The translations under genes and the position numbers were made by a program. From Escherichia coli (GTDB taxonomy: Bacteria > Pseudomonadota > Gammaproteobacteria > Enterobacterales > Enterobacteriaceae), in the NCBI RefSeq assembly GCF_041248615.1, contig NZ_CP158426.1: a stretch of DNA of 64,000 bases; one strand, given 5' to 3'. The notes beneath the pieces are model-generated. The model did not search any database. It was not told the origin of the DNA and saw only the letters and a list, made by a program, of their open reading frames with translations. Positions 6,619 through 63,978 of this stretch are shown piece after piece; position 1 is the stretch's first letter; each line of letters begins with the position of its first letter.

Positions 6619-8013
6619 TCAGAAGAAGTATTTAAAGCGAACGCGTGCGCCGTAACGGTCATCAGTATCATCACCGTGTTTTTTATCACCGTCGCTATCC
6701 AGAATGGAGTAATACGTCCCGAGGTAAATATTAAAGTTCTCCATATCCATCACATTAGCGAACTGATAAGACGCATGAATGGTGTGAATGGTGTACGTCC
6801 CTTCATCATCAATCCAGCAGTCGTTATCACAAACTACACCGCTGAATTCATCAATCTTATTGTGCGCGTAGATATAACCCAGCTCGAAACGTTTCCACAG
6901 CGCGTTAATCCCGGCAGTGAAATCTTTCTCATTATTAGCATCTAAATAGGCGGTATTAAGATTAACCACGACACCATTTTCCGGATCCGTTTTCAGGCCA
7001 TTCCAGGTCATGCTCATACCATAGCCGGTACGATCGGACTGATCGACAAAATTACCCTTGCTATCGGTATAACCATAAGCATTATTTACCACGTTCGCTT
7101 CCATCGCTGCGGAAACGGTGAATTCTTCCGTCGGCGACCAGGCAATTACCGGACGCAGATAAGCAACATTTTTCTGCTGCTCCATATCGCGTCCATGATA
7201 ATTACCGTCATTATATAAAGATGTTCCGTCTTCAAGTAACGTGTTTAATTCAAAATACCAGTTATCAAGTTGTTTGCTGACGAGGAAATTACCGCCAGCG
7301 TTAGAGCGCCCGCGGCCCTCTTTCATCATATAGATATAACCGCTGCCATCGTCATAAAGATCGTTCGCAGTATTACCGGAATGTTCAACAAAGGTATCCT
7401 GATTCAGCGGGAACATATCATAGGCTTCGAAACGACCGACTTTGACCTTCCAGTCATTCTCTTTGCCAAAGAAGAATACCGCATCATCGATATTTACTGA
7501 ACCGTGCATGTCCCCCAGCGGTTGTGCGGAGAACCCGGCGAAATAACCATTATCCAGTTTTCGCATACCATCAAAACCTAACAGAATACGACCATTGAGA
7601 TTCCACTGTTCATTAGTGGGATCGCTATTCACATCAGCGTTGGTCATTGCCAGCAAGCCATGATTACTTTCCGCATCCATATTAAATTCTACGTCGCCGT
7701 AGATTTTTAAATCGCCATAACCTGAGAGCAAAAGATTAGGTGAGGTGGCATTTTTCTTTGCAGATTCCGCCGTTGCCTGTCCATTTACCGGCGTATTGCC
7801 CTGAGCGGCCTTAATTTCGCGGATCTCAGCGGCTTGTTGTGTCTGCAACTGTTTAACCTGGCTCTCTGCTTTTGCCGCCCGCATTTCTGCCGCTTCCAGG
7901 CGTTCTTCCAGCAATGCCATGCGTTGTTCCAGCGTTAAATGCTGTGTTTTTGCCATACCGGTACTACATGCCAATAATAAACCGATGGCTAAAGATAATG
8001 TCGATTTTTTCAT
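6619..8013 (-). CDS. Outer-membrane carbohydrate-selective porin (OprB-like), with N-terminal coiled-coil region
   Basis: 464 aa; signal peptide MKKSTLSLAIGLLLACSTGMA; heptad-like charged stretch (LEQRMALLEERLEAAEMRAAKAESQVKQLQTQQAAEIREIKAAQ) reminiscent of the ScrY N-terminal extension; aromatic/Gly/Asn/Asp-rich beta-barrel body ending in the C-terminal Phe signature ...RFKYFF. Family call is from pattern only. Occupies the position where K-12 has the frv operon (from memory). Confidence 0.7.
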   Translation of the reverse strand: MKKSTLSLAIGLLLACSTGMAKTQHLTLEQRMALLEERLEAAEMRAAKAESQVKQLQTQQAAEIREIKAAQGNTPVNGQATAESAKKNATSPNLLLSGYGDLKIYGDVEFNMDAESNHGLLAMTNADVNSDPTNEQWNLNGRILLGFDGMRKLDNGYFAGFSAQPLGDMHGSVNIDDAVFFFGKENDWKVKVGRFEAYDMFPLNQDTFVEHSGNTANDLYDDGSGYIYMMKEGRGRSNAGGNFLVSKQLDNWYFELNTLLEDGTSLYNDGNYHGRDMEQQKNVAYLRPVIAWSPTEEFTVSAAMEANVVNNAYGYTDSKGNFVDQSDRTGYGMSMTWNGLKTDPENGVVVNLNTAYLDANNEKDFTAGINALWKRFELGYIYAHNKIDEFSGVVCDNDCWIDDEGTYTIHTIHASYQFANVMDMENFNIYLGTYYSILDSDGDKKHGDDTDDRYGARVRFKYFF

Positions 8014-8366: not shown

Positions 8367-9095
8367 TCACGACTTCGTGACATATCCGCGCTCATCACAA
8401 ACCCGCCCCGCGATTACAATTGACTGAAATATTTCATCGACCATTTCGTTGTACTCGCGTAACGCTCGCGGAAATGAGTCGTCGACCATCCAGCTTGTGT
8501 TTGCATCCTGAAGTTGCTCTTTATCCCAGTCAGAGTACGGAACTTTATCTCTGACGCGGCGAACATATTTTTTAGCCTCGAGTTGATACTGGTCTGCCGA
8601 ATTAATGAACGAGAAATTCATACCGCCTTTATCCGCTTCTTTGGCCTGCGCCACCAGCGTTTCCAGTTCAGAGACTTTCTTCATTGCCGCATCAACATCA
8701 AACTTCTCTTGCGATATCAGGTTATTAATTTGTTTCGCTGAAATCATGACTGCCAGAGAATAGTAGTGGAATGTTTTCCCTTCTCTTTCTTCAATATTTT
8801 TCAGTTCCGCAAGCTGACGCTTATCATTAATTTCCTGGATCGCCGCATGATAAGATTCGGCTACAGGTTCAAAGGCGTCCAGATTTTTTAAGAATGTCTG
8901 GTGCAGCGTTTTCCCTTTCGCAAACGCATCGTCTTTATAATTTTCCTGGGTGTAATATTTATCCATTTCGTTAATGGTATTACCCAACGCCACGGCAGCA
9001 TCAATATAACTCACCGCCACGCCATCAATAGGTTGCAGCGCAGGCGTTAACGCTACTACACGCGTTTTGTTTATAAATAAAATAATAAAATTCAC
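8367..9095 (-). CDS. yiiG: YiiG-like hypothetical protein (DUF3829-like), possibly truncated or divergent
   Basis: 242-aa ORF immediately downstream of fdhD, where K-12 has yiiG. Starts at a GTG abutting the fdhD terminator hairpin, with no signal peptide. I recall K-12 YiiG as longer, so this may be a fragment or a shorter allele. Confidence 0.5.
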   Translation of the reverse strand: MNFIILFINKTRVVALTPALQPIDGVAVSYIDAAVALGNTINEMDKYYTQENYKDDAFAKGKTLHQTFLKNLDAFEPVAESYHAAIQEINDKRQLAELKNIEEREGKTFHYYSLAVMISAKQINNLISQEKFDVDAAMKKVSELETLVAQAKEADKGGMNFSFINSADQYQLEAKKYVRRVRDKVPYSDWDKEQLQDANTSWMVDDSFPRALREYNEMVDEIFQSIVIAGRVCDERGYVTKS

Positions 9096-9144: not shown

Positions 9145-9978
9145 TTAATTGCTCAAACGCTGTGGATGAGTATAAACCGTTGCCCGACCCGGTTTACAAA
9201 AGCCCACCAGCGTCAAATTACAGCGTTCAGCCACTTCTACAGCAAGTGTGGTCGCGGCAGACACCGCAAACAAAATCTCTACGCCACACATCGCCGACTT
9301 TTGCACCATTTCATAGCTGGCACGGCTGGAAACCAGCACCGCACCTTGCTGCCAGCTTTCCCCTTCTTGTGACCGGCGGCCTAACAGTTTGTCCAGCGCC
9401 ACATGGCGACCCACGTCTTCATGCCCGCCGACCAGTTCGCCAGATGGCAACATCCATGCAGCGGCGTGAGTACAACCGGTCAGTTGCCCCACTGGCTGGA
9501 AATCATTAAGATGACGTAATGCATCATCCAGTTTGTTGAGATCAAACGTCTGGGTGAACGGCAGCGGCTGCACCGGTTTTCCGATATCATTAAGTTGCTC
9601 CACGCCGCACACGCCGCAGCCTGTACGCCCGGCCAGCGCCCGGCGACGTTCCTTCAACCCCATAAAGCGGCGGCTGGAAAGCTCAATTTGAACTTCAAGA
9701 CCATTACAGGAAGGAACGACATCCATGCCGAAGATATCGCGCGGACTTTCTATTATCCCCTCGGAAAGCGAAAAACCGAGCGCAAAGTACTCAAGGTCTT
9801 TGGGCGACGCCATCATCACCACATGCGAAATGCCGTTGTAGACCAGCGCAACGGGAACTTCTTCCGCGACCTCATCTAACCGTGGGTGTTGTAAATCATC
9901 ACGCCGCCATAACTCAATTTGACGAACACCTGTGATATTTGTCACATTTTCGATTTCTTTTTGCTGTGTTTTTTTCAC
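9145..9978 (-). CDS. fdhD: Formate dehydrogenase accessory sulfurtransferase FdhD
   Basis: 277 aa [28 protein letters not shown]...; divergent from fdoG. Confidence 0.93.
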
Positions 9979-10171
9979 TTTCTCTTAACCAGATAAGAAC
10001 ACACACACCAACATTATGGTATTCTGTTACAAACCCTTCCTGGATGGAGGGAAATTGAGCCAATTCTGGACCTTTGCGGCCCCTTCCGCAAAGAAAAATA
10101 ACTCCCACTCCCTGCACACGCAGCAAGCGAATGTAAATGGGACGTGACAATGTCGAAACAAGGAGCAATCC

Positions 10172-13100
10172 ATGCAGGTCAGCAGAAGGCAGTTCTTTAA
10201 GATCTGCGCTGGCGGTATGGCAGGCACCACGGCAGCGGCACTGGGTTTTGCACCCAGCGTAGCACTCGCGGAAACCCGGCAGTATAAACTGCTGCGCACC
10301 CGCGAAACCCGTAATACCTGCACCTATTGTTCCGTAGGCTGTGGGCTGTTGATGTACAGCCTCGGTGACGGAGCAAAAAACGCCAAAGCATCTATCTTCC
10401 ATATCGAAGGCGATCCGGATCACCCGGTCAACCGCGGTGCACTTTGTCCGAAAGGCGCTGGCCTGGTGGATTTCATCCACTCCGAAAGCCGTCTGAAGTT
10501 TCCGGAATACCGTGCGCCAGGTTCTGATAAATGGCAGCAAATCAGTTGGGAAGAGGCGTTTGATCGCATCGCCAAACTGATGAAAGAAGACCGCGATGCT
10601 AACTACATTGCGCAAAACGCCGAAGGCGTGACTGTTAACCGCTGGCTCTCCACCGGGATGCTGTGTGCTTCCGCGTCGAGTAACGAAACCGGCTATTTAA
10701 CGCAAAAATTCTCCCGCGCGCTGGGTATGCTCGCGGTCGACAACCAGGCGCGTGTCTGACACGGACCAACGGTAGCAAGTCTTGCTCCAACATTTGGTCG
10801 CGGTGCGATGACCAACCACTGGGTCGACATCAAGAACGCCAACCTCGTCGTGGTGATGGGCGGTAACGCCGCTGAAGCTCACCCGGTCGGGTTCCGCTGG
10901 GCGATGGAAGCCAAAATTCACAACGGCGCGAAGCTGATTGTGATCGATCCTCGCTTTACGCGTACGGCGGCGGTGGCTGACTACTATGCCCCTATTCGTT
11001 CCGGTACTGACATTGCTTTCCTGTCAGGCGTATTGCTGTACCTGCTGAACAATGAAAAATTCAACCGCGAATACACCGAAGCCTATACCAACGCCAGCCT
11101 TATCGTGCGTGAGGATTACGGCTTTGAAGATGGCCTGTTCACCGGCTACGACGCGGAAAAACGCAAGTACGATAAATCCTCCTGGACTTACGAACTGGAC
11201 GAAAACGGCTTCGCCAAACGCGATACCACGCTGCAACATCCGCGCTGCGTGTGGAACTTGCTGAAACAGCACGTTTCCCGCTACACGCCAGATGTGGTTG
11301 AAAACATCTGTGGTACGCCAAAAGACGCGTTCCTGAAAGTCTGCGAATACATCGCCGAAACCAGTGCTCACGATAAAACTGCCTCGTTCCTGTATGCCCT
11401 CGGCTGGACGCAACACTCTGTTGGTGCGCAAAACATTCGTACGATGGCGATGATCCAGCTGCTGCTCGGCAATATGGGGATGGCAGGCGGCGGCGTTAAC
11501 GCCCTGCGCGGTCACTCCAATATTCAGGGGCTGACGGACCTGGGGCTGCTGTCGCAGAGCCTGCCGGGTTACATGACGTTGCCGAGCGAGAAGCAGACCG
11601 ATCTGCAAACCTACCTTACAGCCAACACGCCAAAACCGCTGCTGGAAGGTCAGGTAAACTACTGGGGCAACTACCCGAAATTCTTCGTCTCCATGATGAA
11701 GGCCTTCTTTGGTGATAAAGCGACGGCGGAAAATAGCTGGGGCTTTGACTGGTTGCCGAAGTGGGATAAAGGCTACGACGTCCTGCAATACTTCGAGATG
11801 ATGAAAGAAGGCAAGGTCAATGGCTATATCTGCCAGGGCTTTAACCCTGTTGCCTCATTCCCGAACAAAAACAAAGTGATCGGTTGTCTGTCGAAACTGA
11901 AGTTCCTCGTCACCATCGACCCGCTGAACACTGAAACCTCTAACTTCTGGCAGAACCACGGTGAGCTGAACGAAGTTGACTCGTCGAAGATCCAGACCGA
12001 AGTGTTCCGTCTGCCATCGACCTGCTTCGCGGAAGAGAACGGTTCTATCGTTAACTCCGGTCGCTGGTTGCAGTGGCACTGGAAAGGTGCGGACGCCCCG
12101 GGGATTGCGCTGACTGATGGCGAGATCCTCTCCGGTATCTTCCTGCGCTTGCGCAAGATGTATGCCGAACAGGGTGGCGCGAACCCGGACCAGGTGCTGA
12201 ACATGACCTGGAACTACGCCATCCCGCATGAGCCGAAGTCGGAAGAAGTGGCGATGGAGAGCAACGGTAAGGCGCTGGCCGATATTACCGATCCGGCAAC
12301 CGGGGCGGTTATCGTCAAGAAAGGCCAACAACTTAGCTCGTTCGCCCAACTGCGCGATGACGGTACCACCTCCTGTGGCTGCTGGATTTTCGCCGGTAGC
12401 TGGACGCCAGAGGGCAACCAGATGGCACGCCGTGATAACGCCGATCCGTCTGGCCTCGGTAACACGCTGGGCTGGGCATGGGCATGGCCGCTTAACCGCC
12501 GCATTCTGTATAACCGCGCCTCCGCAGATCCGCAGGGTAACCCGTGGGATCCGAAGCGTCAGTTGCTGAAATGGGACGGCACCAAATGGACCGGCTGGGA
12601 TATTCCGGACTACAGCGCAGCACCTCCGGGCAGTGGCGTCGGGCCGTTTATCATGCAGCAGGAAGGCATGGGACGTCTGTTTGCCCTTGATAAGATGGCG
12701 GAAGGTCCGTTCCCGGAACACTACGAGCCGTTTGAAACGCCGCTGGGAACTAACCCGCTGCATCCAAACGTTATCTCGAACCCGGCTGCGCGTATCTTTA
12801 AAGACGACGCCGAAGCGTTGGGTAAAGCCGATAAGTTCCCGTATGTCGGAACCACCTATCGTCTGACCGAGCACTTCCACTACTGGACCAAACACGCGCT
12901 GTTGAACGCGATTTTGCAACCAGAGCAGTTTGTGGAAATCGGGGAGTCGCTGGCGAATAAACTTGGCATTGCCCAGGGCGATACCGTGAAAGTCTCCTCC
13001 AACCGTGGCTATATCAAAGCCAAAGCGGTGGTGACCAAACGTATTCGCACGCTGAAAGCGAACGGCAAAGATATCGATACCATCGGTATTCCGATTCACT

Positions 13101-13222
13101 GGGGCTATGAAGGCGTAGCTAAAAAAGGCTTTATTGCCAATACGTTAACGCCATTCGTTGGTGATGCGAACACGCAGACGCCGGAGTTTAAGTCCTTCCT
13201 TGTGAATGTGGAAAAGGTGTAA
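10172..13222 (+). CDS. fdoG: Formate dehydrogenase-O major (alpha) subunit, selenocysteine-containing
   Basis: Track ORFs 10172..10759 and 10808..13222 are in the same frame, separated by one in-frame TGA at 10757-10759 (context ...ARV-TGA-HGPT...). Twin-arginine signal MQVSRRQFFK; Cys cluster CTYCSVGCG; molybdopterin oxidoreductase body. Total 1016 codons. Confidence 0.93.
10757..10800 (+). other. Selenocysteine UGA codon and downstream SECIS stem-loop in fdoG
   Basis: In-frame TGA followed by cacggaccaacggtagcaagtcttgctccaacatttggtcg, which can fold into a hairpin directly 3' of the UGA as expected for a bacterial SECIS. Confidence 0.75.
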
Positions 13223-13234
13223 CGGAGACGACAT

Positions 13235-14137
13235 ATGGCTTATCAATCTCAAGATATCATTCGTCGTTCCGCGACTAACGGTCTGACCCCCGCGCCTCAG
13301 GCGCGGGACTTCCAGGAAGAAGTGGCGAAACTTATCGACGTCACCACCTGTATCGGCTGTAAAGCCTGTCAGGTGGCGTGTTCAGAGTGGAACGACATTC
13401 GCGATACCGTCGGCAATAACATTGGGGTGTACGACAACCCCAATGATTTAAGCGCCAAATCGTGGACGGTAATGCGCTTCTCGGAAGTGGAGCAGAACGA
13501 CAAACTGGAATGGCTGATCCGCAAAGACGGCTGTATGCACTGTTCCGATCCAGGCTGCCTGAAAGCGTGCCCGGCGGAAGGTGCAATTATTCAGTATGCC
13601 AACGGTATCGTCGACTTCCAGTCCGAGCAGTGCATTGGCTGCGGTTATTGCATTGCGGGCTGTCCGTTCGACATTCCGCGCCTCAACCCGGAAGACAACC
13701 GCGTCTACAAATGTACGCTGTGCGTTGACCGCGTGGTGGTTGGGCAAGAACCAGCCTGCGTGAAGACCTGCCCAACGGGCGCGATTCACTTCGGTACGAA
13801 AGAGTCGATGAAAACGCTGGCGAGCGAGCGCGTTGCTGAGCTGAAAACCCGCGGTTACGACAATGCGGGTCTGTACGATCCGGCAGGCGTTGGTGGTACA
13901 CACGTCATGTACGTGCTGCACCATGCTGACAAGCCAAATCTGTATCATGGCTTGCCGGAGAACCCGGAAATCAGCGAAACCGTGAAATTCTGGAAAGGCA
14001 TCTGGAAACCGCTCGCAGCCGTTGGCTTTGCGGCTACCTTCGCAGCCAGTATCTTCCACTACGTGGGTGTCGGTCCGAACCGTGCGGATGAGGAAGAGAA
14101 TAATCTGCACGAAGAGAAAGACGAGGAGCGCAAATGA
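13235..14137 (+). CDS. fdoH: Formate dehydrogenase-O iron-sulfur (beta) subunit
   Basis: 300 aa with four ferredoxin-type Cys clusters ([39 protein letters not shown]) and a C-terminal transmembrane helix. Confidence 0.93.
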
Positions 14138-39676: not shown

Positions 39677-39845
39677 TGTTTAATCCTTTTGGTTTAAACC
39701 AGATGAAGCATCTTACGCTTACGCCAAAAAAGAAAGCAATTAACGGTGTATGACTTTGCAGATAATTGTGACAAAGCTCTCTATTGACGTAATCACAGAC
39801 TTATAAGGGAGATACTCGCATTGGTGTGCGCTCACGACAGGTAAA

Positions 39846-39878
39846 AAAAAACCTGCCAGCGATGGCAGGTTTTTTATA
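39846..39878 (-). terminator. Rho-independent terminator downstream of typA (bidirectional hairpin)
   Basis: aaaaaaaaacctgccagcgatggcaggttttttat: GC stem flanked by A-run and T-run, 15 bp past the typA stop. Confidence 0.75.
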
Positions 39879-39892
39879 ACTAAAAAACGAAA

Positions 39893-41716
39893 TTAATCGT
39901 CTTTCGGTGCGCGGTTGGCGCGACGACGATCGTTTTCCGTCAGGTGACGTTTACGAATACGGATAGAGGTCGGAGTCACTTCTACCAGTTCGTCATCATC
40001 GATGAACTCCAGAGCTTGTTCCAGAGTCATGCGGATAGGCGGAACCAGAACAACGGCTTCGTCAGTACCGGAAGCACGCATGTTGGTCAGTTTCTTACCG
40101 GTCAGGCAGTTTACAGTCAGGTCGTTAGAGCGGCTATGAATACCGATAATCTGACCTTCGTAAACTTCTGCACCGTGACCGAGGAACAGCTTACCGCGAT
40201 CCTGCAGACCGAACAGCGCGAACGCTACCGCTTTACCCTGACCGTTAGAGATCAGTACGCCGTTCTGACGCTGACCCACTTCACCCGGACGTACGTCGTC
40301 GTAGTGGCTGAAGGTGGAGTACAGCAGACCCGTACCAGAAGTCATGGTCATGAACTCAGAACGGAAGCCAATCAGACCACGGCTTGGGATCACGTAGTCG
40401 AGACGTACGCGGCCTTTACCGTCTGGATTCATGTTTTTCAGGTCGCCTTTACGTTCGCCCAGCGCCTGCATCACAGAACCCTGATGCTGTTCTTCAACGT
40501 CCAGCGTCACGTTTTCATACGGCTCTTGTTTACGACCGTCGATTTCACGGAAGATTACTTTCGGACGGGATACCGCCAGTTCGAAACCTTCACGACGCAT
40601 GTTTTCGATAAGAACAGACAGGTGCAGTTCGCCACGACCAGAAACGCGGAACGCATCGGCGTCTTCGGTTTCTTCTACGCGCAGCGCAACGTTGTGTACC
40701 AGTTCTTTGTTCAGACGATCCAGGATCTGACGAGACGTTACGAACTTACCTTCTTTACCGCAGAACGGCGAGGTGTTAACGCAAAAGAACATAGAAACGG
40801 TCGGCTCATCAACGGAGAGTGCCGGCAGCGCTTCAACGTTTTGCGTGTCGCAAACGGTGTCAGAAATGTTCAGTTCGCCCAGGCCCGTGATCGCCACGAT
40901 ATCGCCAGCTTCCGCCAGATCGGTTTCAATACGTTCCAGACCGAGGTGGCCCAGCACTTTACCGACTTTCGCGTTACGGGTTTTGCCTTCGCTATCGATG
41001 ATAGTGACCTGCTGGTTCGGCTTCACTTTACCGCGCTTGATGCGGCCAATGCCGATAACGCCAACATAGCTGTTGTAATCGAGCTGAGAAATCTGCATCT
41101 GGAACGGACCGTCAAGGTCAACGTCCGGCGCAGGAACGTGGTCAACAATCGCCTGATACAGCGGGGTCATGTCTTCCGCCATATCTTCGTGGTCCAGACC
41201 CGCGATACCGTTCAGCGCAGAAGCGTAAACGATCGGGAAGTCCAGCTGCTCGTCGGTCGCGTCGAGGTTAACGAACAGATCGAATACCTGATCCACAACC
41301 CAATCAGGACGCGCGCCAGGGCGGTCAACTTTGTTGATAACAACAATCGGCTTCAGGCCGTAAGCAAACGCTTTTTTGGTTACGAAGCGCGTTTGCGGCA
41401 TCGGGCCGTCAAATGCGTCAACCACCAGCAGCACTGAGTCTACCATGGACATTACACGTTCAACTTCACCACCGAAGTCGGCGTGCCCCGGGGTATCAAC
41501 GATGTTGATACGGTAATCATTCCATTTGATAGCGGTGTTTTTCGCGAGGATGGTAATCCCACGCTCTTTCTCCAAATCGTTGGAGTCCATCACGCGCTCT
41601 TGGGTTTCGGCACGAGAGTCGAACGTACCGGATTGTTGGAGCAGCTTGTCTACCAGGGTGGTTTTACCATGGTCTACGTGCGCGATGATGGCGATATTAC
41701 GCAATTTTTCGATCAC
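39893..41716 (-). CDS. typA: Ribosome-associated translational GTPase TypA/BipA
   Basis: 607 aa [26 protein letters not shown]..., G-motifs AHVDHGKTT / DTPGHADF / NKVD; divergent from glnA. Confidence 0.95.
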
Positions 41717-41864
41717 AACTTTGCCTCAGGCATTAGAAATAGCGCGTTATTGTACACGGATTAATCGCACTACAAAACAGGATCACAAACATCCTCCGCA
41801 AACAAGTATTGCAGAGTCCCTTTGTGATCGCTTTCACGGAGCATAAAAAGGGTTATCCAAAGGT

Positions 41865-42010
41865 CATTGCACCAATATGGTGCTTAATGTTTCCATTGAA
41901 GCACTATATTGGTGCAACATTCACATCATGGTGCAGCCCTTTTGCACGATGTTAAGCATGATAACGCCTTTTAGGGGCAATTTAAAAGTTGGCACAGTTT
42001 TCGCTTTATC
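41865..42010 (+). promoter_or_regulatory. glnA control region: NtrC binding sites and sigma-54 promoter glnAp2
   Basis: Dyad sites tgcaccaatatggtgc (about 41868-41883) and gcactatattggtgca (about 41901-41916); sigma-54 -24/-12 element TTGGCACagtttTCGCT at about 41989-42005, about 85 bp upstream of the glnA ATG. Confidence 0.8.
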
Positions 42011-48625: not shown

Positions 48626-48691
48626 AATGGTTCGTCTTTTAGCCGTTTTATTCAGTATAGATTTGCGGCGGAATCTAACAGAAAGCAAGCA

Positions 48692-48936
48692 AAGAAAAAA
48701 GGCGACAGATTACTCTGTCGCCTTTTTTCCTGACTCATAACCCTTAACGGGTCTTACAATCCTTGCAGGCCGCCAACACACCCTGTTTTTCCATTAGCCG
48801 GAACAATCCGTGTTGATTCCATTTCCGTTTAATTACGTCTCCGGACGTTTGTCTTCCTGACAATCCTCTGTCTTCGCCTCCTGGCGCTCCTGACCCTCAT
48901 CCTGAGTCATTGTTCCTGTTAGCGTCCTCGCTCTAT
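48692..48936 (-). ncRNA. csrC: CsrC small RNA (CsrA-sequestering)
   Basis: Minus-strand sequence begins ATAGAGCGAGGACGCTAACAGGAACAATGACTCAGGATGAGGGTCAGGAGCG..., carries many AGGA/GGA motifs, and ends in the hairpin GGCGACAGAGTAATCTGTCGCC plus T-run; matches the CsrC sequence as I remember it; located between yihI and engB. Confidence 0.85.
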
Positions 48937-49961: not shown

Positions 49962-50073
49962 CAATAAAAAACGCCCCAGTCATTACTGACTGGGGCGGCT
50001 AAAATATTCAGCCAAATCCGATTACGTGAAGTAAAAGGTCTGAAAGATAGAACATCTTACCTCTGTACCCTAC
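49962..50073 (-). ncRNA. spf: Spot 42 small RNA
   Basis: Minus-strand sequence GTAGGGTACAGAGGTAAGATGTTCTATCTTTCAGACCTTTTACTTCACGTAATCGGATTTGGCTGAATATTTTAGCCGCCCCAGTCAGTAATGACTGGGGCGTTTTTTATTGG matches Spot 42 as I recall it, including the terminal hairpin and U-run; lies downstream of polA. Confidence 0.9.
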
Positions 50074-50220
50074 GCGACTAACTTTACTCTTTTTTGTTCA
50101 GTTCAGAAAGCATTTTTTGTAATTTTTTTTCAGTTGTTGCATAGGAATTTCTAATAGCCATCACAAAACGTGACAGCTTATGTTGCTTACTTACGAAAAA
50201 AGGGCATGTTCAGGCGAATC

Positions 50221-57973: not shown

Positions 57974-58558
57974 GTGAATCTGATGACGACGATAACAGGC
58001 GTTGTGCTGGCGGGCGGTAAAGCCAGACGAATGGGCGGCGTAGATAAAGGATTGCTTGAATTAAACGGCAAACCATTATGGCAACATGTCGCTGACGCGC
58101 TTATGACGCAGCTTTCTCACGTCGTGGTTAATGCTAATCGTCATCAGGAAATCTATCAGGCAAGCGGTCTGAAAGTGATTGAAGATTCACTGGCGGATTA
58201 CCCAGGCCCTCTGGCAGGAATGCTTTCAGTAATGCAGCAGGAAGCTGGTGAGTGGTTTTTGTTTTGTCCGTGCGATACGCCTTACATTCCCCCTGATTTA
58301 GCCGCCCGGCTTAATCATCAGCGCAAAGATGCGCCTGTCGTGTGGGTCCATGACGGTGAACGCGATCACCCGACTATTGCTCTGGTAAACCGCGCTATTG
58401 AGCCTTTATTACTAGAATATCTGCAAGCAGGAGAACGCCGGGTAATGGCATTTATGCGTCTGGCTGGCGGGCATGCGGTTGATTTCAGCGATAATAAAGA
58501 TGCATTTATTAACGTGAATACGCCAGAGGAGCTTGCCCGATGGCAGGAAAAACGATGA
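57974..58558 (+). CDS. mobA: Molybdenum cofactor guanylyltransferase
   Basis: 194 aa, GTG start, [22 protein letters not shown] (nucleotide-binding loop). Confidence 0.93.
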
Positions 58559-59067
58559 TACCGTTACTCGCCTTTGCCGCGTGGAGTGGCACTGGAAAAA
58601 CTACGCTGCTGAAAAAACTGATCCCGGCATTATGCGCCAGAGGGATCCGTCCAGGGCTGATTAAGCATACGCACCATGATATGGATGTTGATAAACCGGG
58701 CAAAGATAGCTATGAGCTGCGCAAGGCTGGCGCGGCACAAACCATCGTTGCCAGCCAGCAGCGATGGGCCTTGATGACGGAAACACCAGACGAAGAAGAG
58801 CTGGATCTACATTTTCTCGCAAGTCGAATGGATACCTCAAAGCTGGATTTGATTCTGGTCGAAGGGTTTAAGCATGAAGAGATCGCAAAGATTGTGCTGT
58901 TTCGCGATGGAGCCGGACATCGACCTGAAGAATTAGTGATAGACAGGCATGTTATTGCTGTAGCCAGTGATGTGCCGCTTAATCTTGATGTCGCATTACT
59001 GGATATTAATGATGTTGAGGGGCTGGCTGATTTTGTGGTGGAGTGGATGCAAAAGCAGAACGGATAA
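58540..59067 (+). CDS. mobB: Molybdopterin-guanine dinucleotide biosynthesis adapter MobB
   Basis: 175 aa with P-loop GTGKTT; overlaps the mobA 3' end. Confidence 0.9.
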
Positions 59068-59137: not shown

Positions 59138-59644
59138 GTGCAGTTTATGAAACATTCATTTGAAGTAAAACTTGCCGCTGTAAATCATTACCTGGCTGGT
59201 CAGGCAGGCATCATTTCTACGGCAAAACTCTTTCAACTTTCTCACACCAGCCTCTCACACTGGATTAATCTTTTTCTTCTTCACGGTCCTCGGGCACTGG
59301 ATTGCAGACACAAGCGTAGCTATTCTCCTGAAGATAAACTTTGCGTGGTTCTTTATGCTCTCGGGCATTCTGAGTCTCTACCCCGGGTAGCTGCCCGGTT
59401 TAACATTCCCAGCCACAACACGGTTAAAAACTGGATAAAAGGCTACCGCAAATCTGGTAATGAGGCCTTTATCAGGCGCAGGAAGGAGAAAAGCATGACC
59501 CGTTCTGATGATACCCATGAAAACGAGGCAAACATGACGCCGGAAGAGATGAAGAATGAGCTGCGTTATCTTCGCGCAGAAAATGCATATCTGAAAGCCA
59601 TGCAGGAGCATCTCCTGGAAAAAAAGCGCCAGGAGCTGGAGAAA

Positions 59645-59668
<24 letters not shown>
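59138..59668 (+). CDS. IS3-family transposase OrfA (HTH DNA-binding subunit)
   Basis: 176 aa ...MKHSFEVKLAAVNHYLAGQAGIISTAKLFQLSHTSLSHWINLF... with C-terminal leucine-zipper-like region; ends just after the A6 slippery run. Confidence 0.85.
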
Positions 59669-60527
<859 letters not shown>

Positions 60528-60601: not shown

Positions 60602-60721
60602 ATGCCTGGCAGTTCCCTACTCTCGCATGGGGAGACCCCACACTACCATCGGCGCTACGGCGTTTCACTTCTGAGTTCGGCATGGGGTCAGGTGGGACCA
60701 CCGCGCTAAGGCCGCCAGGCA
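60602..60721 (-). rRNA. rrf: 5S ribosomal RNA
   Basis: Reverse complement reads TGCCTGGCGGCCTTAGCGCGGTGGTCCCACCTGACCCCATGCCGAACTCAGAAGTGAAACGCCGTAGCGCCGATGGTAGTGTGGGGTCTCCCCATGCGAGAGTAGGGAACTGCCAGGCAT (120 nt). Confidence 0.97.
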
Positions 60722-60814
60722 AATTCTGTTTTATCAGACCGCTTCTGCGTTCTGATTTAATCTGTATCAGGCTGAAAATCTTTCTCTCATCCGCCAAAAC
60801 ATCTTCGGCGTTGT

Positions 60815-63719
<2,905 letters not shown>

Positions 63720-63902
63720 TCACAACCCGAAGATGTTTCTTTCGATTCATCATCGTGTTGCGAAAATTTGAGAGACTCACGAACAACTTTCATTGTTCAG
63801 TGTTTCAATTTTCAGCTTGATCCAGATTTTTAAAGAGCAAAACTTCGCAGTGAACCTTTGCAGGTACACTCTGAAGTATTTTTTATTTAATCACTACAGA
63901 GA

Positions 63903-63978
63903 TGGTGGAGCTATGCGGGATCGAACCGCAGACCTCCTGCGTGCAAAGCAGGCGCTCTCCCAGCTGAGCTATAGCCCC
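63903..63978 (-). tRNA. alaT: tRNA-Ala (anticodon UGC), in the 16S-23S spacer
   Basis: Reverse complement GGGGCTATAGCTCAGCTGGGAGAGCGCCTGCTTTGCACGCAGGAGGTCTGCGGTTCGATCCCGCATAGCTCCACCA; G3:U70 wobble pair in the acceptor stem and TGC anticodon. The specific rrn operon (rrnA by synteny with mobB) is inferred. Confidence 0.93.

Follow-up and report, generated by a model that had tools for sequence, protein, structure and literature searches.

Does the TGA that interrupts an Escherichia coli formate dehydrogenase locus separate two genes, disable one, or encode selenocysteine? The question arises at positions 10172..13222 of the window, the whole 64,000-nucleotide stretch of contig NZ_CP158426.1 analyzed here, for which the open reading frame list of the plus strand gives two entries, 10172..10759 (195 aa) and 10808..13222 (804 aa). 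The two starts lie 636 nucleotides apart (10808 − 10172 = 212 × 3), so both ORFs share one frame, and translation of 10172..13222 yielded 1017 codons with a sole internal stop at codon 196, followed by the terminal TAA. An earlier sequence-only reading had described two in-frame ORFs split solely by the TGA at 10757-10759, as this translation confirmed. With a probability of roughly 97%, the region is a single intact E. coli gene, fdoG, in which the apparent splitting stop is a selenocysteine codon accompanied by its insertion hairpin. The locus is composed as follows.

10172..13222, plus strand: fdoG, formate dehydrogenase-O catalytic (alpha) subunit; 1016-residue selenoprotein gene, ATG to TAA
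10160..10165, plus strand: Shine-Dalgarno-like AAGGAG, 6 nt 5' of the fdoG ATG; read off the sequence, putative function
10181..10201, plus strand: Tat (twin-arginine) motif S-R-R-Q-F-F-K, residues 4-10, from the translation
13235..14137, plus strand: fdoH, Fe-S beta subunit (TIGR01582, 478.7 bits; RefSeq annotation)
14134..14769, plus strand: fdoI, cytochrome b556 gamma subunit (NF007924, 453 bits; cut-off 341)
14766..15695, plus strand: fdhE, formate dehydrogenase accessory protein (NF002925, 604 bits)
9145..9978, minus strand: fdhD, sulfurtransferase, divergently transcribed (TIGR00129, 340 bits)

The fdoG product matched the NCBIfam model TIGR01553 at 1574 bits (cut-off 814.2), residues 2-1015 covering profile positions 1-1009, and one chain carried, in order, the Pfam domains PF04879 (Fe4S4; residues 44-103), PF00384 (Molybdopterin; 107-589), and PF01568 (Molydop_binding; 894-1009). 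Residues 1-33 aligned to the signal region of FdnG in the crystal structure 1kqf_A, and residues 4-10 are named a twin-arginine motif after the Tat consensus. Against K-12 FdoG, 1016 of 1017 aligned positions were identical (the TGA and the terminal stop being scored as matches), as compared to 75% nucleotide and 77% amino acid identity between the window gene and K-12 fdnG. The gene order fdhD<>fdoG-fdoH-fdoI-fdhE is the arrangement of the FDH-O locus, and FdoI scored below the cut-off of the FDH-N gamma (FdnI) model (243.6 versus 339). These comparisons identify the window gene as the ortholog of K-12 FdoG rather than of FdnG. RefSeq carries the gene as a single 3051-nt CDS without a pseudogene flag; the gene name that RefSeq/PGAP attaches to it, "fdnG", is a mislabel. 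The neighboring fdhD encodes a sulfurtransferase required for FDH maturation (PMC6239281). Consensus scans of 9900..16200 returned two promoter sites (4.4 in shuffles) and six terminator sites (6.9 in shuffles), in each case fewer than in shuffled sequence.

The interrupting codon and its protein context were then as follows.

10757..10759, plus strand: UGA codon 196, predicted to be read as selenocysteine (Mo ligand); context VDNQARV*HGPTVASL; aligns with the Sec of structures

When the fdoG product was compared with known structures, using Cys as a placeholder for Sec, the window TGA aligned with the Sec (X196) of the FdnG crystal structure 1kqf_A and with the Sec of Desulfovibrio FdhA structures including 6sdr_A, so that the ...ARV-U-HGPT... 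context proposed from sequence held up. The U-H-G-P at codon 196 fits the UHxP family motif listed in PMC13188914 (Table 1), and TGA also occupies the corresponding codon in K-12 fdoG, fdnG, and fdhF. PF00384 spans the TGA, with ORF 1 accounting for profile positions 1-67 and ORF 2 for 99-300. The 16 codons from the TGA to ATG 10808 (HGPTVASLAPTFGRGA) are conserved protein sequence, and that ATG is a conserved internal Met (Met213) of the GRGAMTNHW motif. The 820 codons 3' of the TGA are open and differ from K-12 by one amino acid.

Directly at the TGA, the coding sequence contains a hairpin with the following limits.

10754..10812, plus strand: SECIS element, limits of Rfam SECIS_3 (RF01989); inside the coding sequence, model positions 1-59 of 59
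10771..10788, plus strand: upper stem-loop GGUAGCAAGUCUUGCUCC, 7 bp; nt 15-32 when the U of UGA is nt 1; the putative SelB-binding part

The SECIS_3 match scored 84.3 bits against a gathering threshold of 63 (E = 1.4e-18 for the whole window), far beyond chance, with the UGA at model positions 4-6, and the SECIS suspected after the TGA was thereby confirmed. The upper stem carries a bulged U at 10773 and a 3-nt apical loop, GUC, at 10779..10781; the loop opens with G23-U24 (window 10779-10780), 19 nt from the UGA. The numbering G23, U24, and U17 is that of the fdhF literature, and PMC4605307 does not use it. The bSECIS model of PMC13188914 (Fig. 2A) describes an apical loop of 3-9 nt on an upper stem of 4-16 bp, a G at the first or second loop position with G or U as the next nucleotide, 16-37 nt from UGA to apical loop, and a minimum free energy (MFE) of −7.5 kcal/mol or lower, and the fdoG hairpin lies within all four of these published criteria (loop/stem size, loop start, spacing, and MFE). 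It likewise conforms to the wider rule that the stem has 6-8 bp and that a conserved G lies ∼20 nt past the UGA (PMC4605307). Folding of the 49 nt from the UGA onward gave an MFE of −14.6 kcal/mol, and that of the 18-nt upper stem-loop by itself −4.5 kcal/mol. This stability is not unusual for the composition (z = −1.45; 19 of 200 shuffles fold equally well), as is also the case for the validated fdhF element (z = −0.49). Stability is thus uninformative for the fdoG SECIS, and the case rests on the covariance model together with the comparative data. Membership of the fdhF-type family SECIS_2 was considered and rejected at 28.1 bits (threshold 70). The proposal to fold the downstream sequence and compare it with the fdhF SECIS is borne out as to the hairpin, which folds, with one refinement: the element belongs with those of fdnG and fdoG (SECIS_3) rather than with that of fdhF.

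Homologues were sampled without regard to the codon at position 196, by taking the first 120 matches listed and requiring an exact GRGAMTNHW with a CGN Arg codon. Among 116 homologues so sampled, 113 carried TGA, three a Cys codon, and none any other codon, proportions that describe motif-retaining homologues rather than all formate dehydrogenases. The sequence-only reading had named Cys or other sense codons in homologues without a SECIS-like structure, together with absent sel genes, as the pattern that would speak against it, and a different one was observed. SECIS cells were paired in 92.4% of cases, as compared to 26-50% in slid controls, and the upper helix was 99.7% paired over 46 distinct sequences. 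In two of its pairs both partners change: pair 21-33 was GC in 34, AU in 10, and GU in 2, and pair 24-30 was AU in 35 and CG in 11. These compensatory G-C/A-U and A-U/C-G switches fall at synonymous third positions. Cells changed on both sides numbered 25, versus 5.9 in shuffles, and none of 500 shuffles reached the observed value. The lower helix was weaker, with 86.7% paired in the Rfam register and 83.5% in the window MFE register, similar support that leaves the register ambiguous; the lower stem is dispensable for a minimal SECIS. Invariance in alignment columns 43-59 is partly ascertainment, because the search pattern overlaps them, while the upper helix is unaffected.

Of the 113 TGA homologues, 84 have a loop of GUC or GUU as far from the UGA as in fdoG. 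As a discriminator between Sec and Cys loci, a home-made bSECIS hairpin criterion (≥5 bp, a G at loop position 1 or 2, and 16-37 nt of spacing) was tried and set aside, since it passes 113/113 TGA loci but also 3/3 Cys loci and so does not discriminate. Loci of the two kinds are told apart by the position-specific G-U loop and by the covariance model. Across Enterobacterales the SECIS core was 100% identical, third positions included, in the 16 evaluated Enterobacterales-type loci that share the 59-nt core exactly (others of the type differ slightly), as compared to 32-88% identity at flanking third positions.

The 64-kb window itself contains no sel genes. Of 5426 E. coli genomes, 5424 have selC, 5425 have selAB and 5425 have selD, and a tRNA-Sec lies at 68192..68286 of NZ_OW967178.1, a genome 99.97% identical to the window over 64 kb. 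The expectation of sel genes elsewhere in the genome is borne out to this extent, and by this proxy, a near-identical genome plus species-wide counts, the host appears to have the Sec-decoding trait selA/selB/selC/selD. PMC6239281 describes all three E. coli FDHs as containing Sec, and FdoG as Sec-ligated. The stem-loop of fdnG is essential for decoding of UGA as Sec by experiment, as the work of Berg, Baron and Stewart (1991) is cited (ref. 46 in PMC13188914), and by analogy with this nucleotide-identical element we infer SelB binding and Sec insertion at the fdoG UGA.

On established knowledge of such systems, decoding would proceed as follows. The mRNA just 3' of the UGA would fold, in frame, into the bacterial SECIS hairpin, placing the apical loop (G23, U24) and the bulged U17 ∼20 nt after the codon; Sec-tRNA(Sec) would be brought to the A-site UGA, for which release factor 2 would compete; and the hairpin would then be melted by the ribosome and translated as residues 197-214. 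Codon 196 would thus be translated as selenocysteine, a ligand of molybdenum, and the product would be the Tat-exported catalytic subunit of respiratory formate dehydrogenase-O, with molybdenum bis-MGD and [4Fe-4S].

Three other accounts of the TGA were weighed against the same observations. If the TGA were a true nonsense mutation, fdoG would be a pseudogene in this strain with the 195-residue fragment as its sole product, as might be read from the two listed ORFs and from the many public records that list both fragments as separate proteins. RF2 competes at UGA, so some termination there is expected as a side reaction. However, the same TGA is common to K-12 fdoG, fdnG, and fdhF, to nearly all E. 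coli genomes, and to the great majority of sampled homologues, the downstream codons are not decaying, a SECIS stands 3' of the TGA, and RefSeq sets no pseudogene flag; we consider the pseudogene reading, already refuted by conservation of the TGA, extremely improbable. The listed ORFs and the fragment entries in databases would equally suit two separate genes whose polypeptides assemble into the enzyme, but the TGA cuts a single Pfam domain, the solved homologue 1kqf_A is one unbroken chain through this position, and the supposed second start is an internal Met preceded by 16 codons of conserved protein, and the chance of this arrangement is next to nil. Reading of the UGA mainly by an ordinary tRNA in place of Sec-tRNA(Sec), for instance through near-cognate suppression by a Trp or Cys tRNA, would accord with the low-level misreading of UGA that is known in general, and the Cys codon in three homologues indicates that a sulfur ligand is chemically viable at residue 196. 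Against it stand a SECIS whose type, that of fdnG, has been validated by experiment, the strong purifying selection acting on its synonymous sites, near-universal sel machinery in E. coli, and the Sec ligation of FdoG described in the literature (PMC6239281), and it is very unlikely. Selenocysteine insertion at codon 196 remains the best reading. Comparison with the paralogue gave a side observation.

10754..10824, plus strand: 71-nt stretch identical to the K-12 paralogue fdnG, from codon 195 through the SECIS

In the codon alignment of fdoG with fdnG no other exact run is as long (runner-up 37 nt); within this stretch, 19 of 19 synonymous codons are identical, versus a background of 58%. Of 5426 complete E. 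coli genomes, 5425 contain the 71 nt, at 10,830 sites in all, two per genome, and 100% identity between the two paralogues extends over the entire 59-nt core, with its unpaired linker and third-codon positions. Recent gene conversion between fdoG and fdnG, instead of selection at the RNA level, would produce a tract of this appearance, an exact run twice any other in a 75%-identical pair. However, loci with the exact core include Photorhabdus, Providencia, Citrobacter, and Enterobacter, among others, in which flanking synonymous sites are near saturation, the run takes in the SECIS, starting from codon 195, and other clades alter the stem by compensatory pairs only. Conversion within a genome cannot explain such order-wide invariance, though it could contribute, and recent conversion as the cause is doubtful. 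Because the core seems more frozen than upkeep of the hairpin alone requires, an additional sequence-specific constraint in Enterobacterales (lower stem or linker contacts with SelB or the ribosome) or recurrent fdnG-fdoG conversion confined to the tract was also considered, and this too is an unlikely, tentative proposal.

fdoG belongs to the classic trio of E. coli selenoprotein genes; taken as a stop, its UGA yields either a spurious pair of genes or a spurious pseudogene. Sequences identical to the 195-aa and 804-aa fragments have been called as proteins in their own right on at least 1000 contigs apiece, and they fall in clusters of 3382 and 6687 members. The warning that automated annotation would miscall the gene is justified by these fragments, which circulate as separate "proteins" in public collections; it does not extend to RefSeq/PGAP, which has one intact CDS. 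Public collections label some of the N-terminal fragments "sulfate ABC transporter substrate-binding protein". The locus had also been called known biology, and it is indeed the textbook fdoG selenocysteine case: its Sec codon and SECIS are already known, and understanding of selenocysteine decoding is unchanged. The finding matters only as an annotation safeguard against an error that is real and widespread.

Among known systems, the closest is K-12 fdoG (b3894, Sec196), with 98.7% nucleotide identity over 3051 nt, one amino acid difference (S689K), TGA at codon 196, an identical SECIS, and the same fdhD<>fdoGHI-fdhE neighborhood. The window gene differs from it by 40 substitutions, most of them synonymous and all outside gene nt 560-660, and by its strain background, the window being nearest to NZ_OW967178.1 (99.97% over 64 kb). 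E. coli fdnG (FDH-N alpha; PDB 1KQF) shares the architecture, Sec at residue 196, and a SECIS_3 match, but is a paralogue at another locus (fdnGHI, at 1.55 Mb in K-12); FDH-N is nitrate-induced, whereas FDH-O is present aerobically as well (PMC6239281). The fdhF SECIS (SECIS_2), the reference bacterial SECIS, resembles the fdoG element in UGA followed by CACGG..CGGU.GCA.GUCU, in bulged U17, and in loop G23 and U24 equidistant from the UGA, with 22 of the first 26 nt identical. In contrast, the fdhF upper stem has 6 bp and a 4-nt GGUC loop as compared to 7 bp and GUC in fdoG, the 3' half diverges, and FdhF is a 715-aa cytoplasmic enzyme with Sec140. Cys-containing FdhA (e.g., that of Shewanella xiamenensis L028) belongs to the same family and has GRGAMTNHW 13 codons downstream, but TGT or TGC replaces TGA, the TVA(S/G)LA peptide encoding the upper stem is altered, and there is no SECIS_3 match.

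Translation of window positions 10172..13222 (+) gave 1017 codons ending in TAA, the only internal stop being a TGA at codon 196 (10757..10759; context VDNQARV*HGPTVASL). The mechanical ORF list enters this stretch as two features:

10172..10759, + strand: ORF 1, 195 aa
10808..13222, + strand: ORF 2, 804 aa

The two starts are offset by 636 nt (212 x 3) and thus share a frame, exactly as described in the sequence-only reading, which attributed the split to a selenocysteine codon of fdoG. The stretch encodes one protein, not two, because PF00384 (Molybdopterin, Pfam) runs across the TGA as a single domain (residues 107-589 of the read-through product; profile positions 1-67 in ORF 1 alone and 99-300 in ORF 2 alone), because the nearest available structure, that of FdnG (1kqf_A), shows an unbroken chain here, and because the ATG of ORF 2 is the conserved internal Met of GRGAMTNHW. 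The selenocysteine of 1kqf_A, printed X, aligned with the TGA, as did the Sec of Desulfovibrio "selenocysteine-containing" FdhA structures, and the local motif U-H-G-P is compatible with the UHxP Sec motif given for this formate dehydrogenase family (PMC13188914). The two-ORF observation is confirmed, and its selenocysteine interpretation is supported by homologues, structure alignment and a SECIS_3 match.

The read-through product matched the NCBIfam model TIGR01553 over its full length (1574 bits; cut-off 814). Compared with K-12 FdoG (b3894), it has a single amino-acid change, S689K, and 40 nt differences (98.7% nucleotide identity), whereas the paralogue FdnG is more distant, at 75% (nt) and 77% (aa) identity. 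Downstream lie fdoH, fdoI and fdhE, with fdhD upstream and divergent, and the gamma subunit scored above the FdoI model cut-off and below that of FdnI. Near-identity to K-12 FdoG, these neighbors and the FdoI-type gamma subunit therefore identify the gene as fdoG, encoding the catalytic subunit of formate dehydrogenase-O. Consistent with an E. coli origin, the 3.2-kb region was matched in 5425 of 5426 complete genomes, and NZ_OW967178.1 is 99.97% identical to the whole window (16 mismatches, 3 gaps).

The interval between rhaM and fdhD holds a gene for a "carbohydrate porin" (6619..8013, -) and a yiiG remnant (8367..9056) that the annotation shows without its N terminus; in K-12, by contrast, yiiG is intact and adjoins fdhD. 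An alpha/beta hydrolase gene and fabY flank a transposase gene with an adjoining truncated hypothetical gene (19520..21334), and several small hypothetical genes (16975..18214) occupy the same stretch. The products of mobA and mobB (57974..59067), about 45 kb from fdoG, convert the molybdenum cofactor into the guanine dinucleotide form that FdoG needs. In the annotation of the near-identical genome, mobB is separated from the 5S rRNA gene by an IS3-family element (59147..60495) whose IS1397 transposase has an annotated programmed frameshift; counting the fdoG Sec, the window has two translational recoding events. Further RNA features reached Rfam gathering scores:

39840..39908, - strand: STnc370
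41798..41905, - strand: ES222
48683..48936, - strand: CsrC
49965..50083, - strand: Spot 42
60604..63978, - strand: 3' part of an rrn operon (5S, 23S, StyR-44, tRNA-Ala)

The warning that automated annotation would miscall the gene held in part and is still warranted. RefSeq/PGAP gives a single 3051-nt CDS without a pseudogene flag, so a Sec-aware pipeline copes with fdoG, but exact copies of the 195-aa and 804-aa fragments are recorded too, each on 1000 contigs or more, and their clusters hold 3382 and 6687 members, respectively. Two proteins in the cluster of the 195-aa fragment (10172..10756), P0003 and P0004 from Cronobacter and Hafnia, carry the name "sulfate ABC transporter substrate-binding protein", evidently a misannotation inherited from the split gene. 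In every record listed, the RefSeq label of 10172..13222 is "fdnG / formate dehydrogenase-N subunit alpha" despite the adjoining fdoH/fdoI; the label was evidently taken from the TIGR01553 model name, and two genes per genome are therefore named fdnG.

The hairpin suspected 3' of the TGA was recovered as a full-length match to Rfam SECIS_3 (RF01989) at 10754..10812 (84.3 bits; gathering score 63), while the fdhF-type model, SECIS_2, gave only 28.1 bits on the same element against a threshold of 70. A less regular lower stem lengthens the hairpin below the following upper part:

10771..10788, + strand: upper stem-loop GGUAGCAAGUCUUGCUCC, nt 15-32 from the U of UGA; 7-bp stem, bulged U17, GUC loop (G23, U24)

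With a spacing of 19 nt and an MFE of -14.6, the hairpin agrees throughout with a bacterial SECIS model (loop of 3-9 nt starting with G then G/U, stem of 4-16 bp, UGA-loop spacing of 16-37 nt, MFE of -7.5 or lower; PMC13188914 Fig. 2A), and likewise with the rule of a 6-8-bp stem and a conserved G about 20 nt past the UGA (PMC4605307). Stability alone is no evidence for a SECIS, since z against shuffled sequences was -1.45 for the fdoG hairpin and -0.49 for that of fdhF, a validated SECIS.

Homologues with Cys or another sense codon and no SECIS, together with missing sel genes, had been named as the finding that would count against selenocysteine. Loci were sampled blind to the Sec codon by back-translated GRGAMTNHW, 13 codons downstream, with one genome per species (120 loci, the first among the matches listed). 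The Sec-equivalent codon among these was TGA in 113, TGT in 2 and TGC in 1, with 5 not evaluable and no other sense codon among evaluated loci. The three Cys-codon loci have an altered peptide at the stem site and no SECIS_3 match; a generic hairpin criterion did not tell them from TGA loci. Hairpins of five TGA-bearing FdhA loci outside the FdnG/FdoG clade (L010, L012, L015, L019 and L048; Desulfovibrionales, Dehalococcoidales, Bacillales and Geobacterales), often with a GGC loop and a spacing of 23, fell below the gathering score of every Rfam SECIS family, and Rfam therefore seems to cover the SECIS types of bacterial FdhA incompletely. Within the clade, 69 loci plus the window sequence gave 46 distinct 59-mers, on which the SECIS_3 structure was 92.4% paired, compared with 26-50% for slid partners. 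The upper helix was 99.7% paired, with two pairs switching on both sides (G-C 34, A-U 10, G-U 2; and A-U 35, C-G 11). Because the switching columns are third positions of Val/Ala and Ala/Leu codons, synonymous sites covary in a manner that keeps the stem. The lower helix was weaker (83-87% paired), with two registers similarly supported.

The longest exact fdoG/fdnG identity, 71 nt from codon 195 (10754..10824), includes the SECIS; no other run exceeds 37 nt. Within the 71 nt, the 19 synonymous codons are all identical, versus 58% elsewhere, a result reached by 41 of 5000 permutations, and several of them are GGA, CCA, ACG, GTA, AGT and CTT, non-preferred codons in E. coli. Matches to the 71 nt across E. 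coli number 10,830, spread over 5425 genomes (median two per genome), and in 5432 of 5433 records the best of them is at least 99% identical. Recent gene conversion alone cannot explain this identity, because the 59-nt core is 100% identical, third positions included, in 16 evaluated Enterobacterales-type loci (Photorhabdus, Providencia, Citrobacter, Enterobacter, E. albertii and others), while flanking third positions are only 32-88% identical, near saturation; other loci of this type depart slightly from the core. Combined protein and RNA constraint most simply explains the invariance, whose order-wide extent in both paralogues is the only mildly unusual point; the UGA and SECIS of fdoG are, as the sequence-only reading stated, already known biology.

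No tRNA-Sec or sel genes were found within the 64-kb window; those of K-12 lie at least 250 kb away, and tRNA-Sec is annotated at 68192..68286 of NZ_OW967178.1. Their expected presence elsewhere in the genome was borne out by proxy, with selC in 5424 and selAB, selD and fdoG each in 5425 of 5426 E. coli genomes. In Candidatus Burkholderia verschuerenii (L014), a tRNA-Sec gene and the Sec-containing fdh gene are about 10.5 kb apart, with a group II intron fragment at the locus end (tRNA-Sec and intron features at L014:492-583 and L014:14897-14989). Beside the observed UGA, hairpin, SECIS family membership, conservation, covariation and sel genes of the species, decoding itself would proceed with SelB-GTP-Sec-tRNA(Sec) docking on the apical part of the hairpin at the mRNA entrance, the C-terminal winged-helix domains of SelB making the contact, and competing with RF2 as it supplies Sec-tRNA(Sec) to the UGA in the A site (PMC4605307). 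The hairpin would then be unwound and translated as residues 197-214, and Sec196 would become the Mo ligand of the Tat-exported enzyme.

All three E. coli formate dehydrogenases coordinate bis-MGD through selenocysteine and are matured by FdhD (PMC6239281). The stem-loop of fdnG, which Berg, Baron and Stewart (1991, cited in PMC13188914) showed to be indispensable for decoding UGA as Sec, is nucleotide-identical to that of fdoG. The fdhF SECIS shares 22 of its first 26 nt with fdoG, with U17, G23 and U24 equally far from the UGA, but has a 6-bp stem and 4-nt loop in place of the 7 bp and GUC of fdoG.
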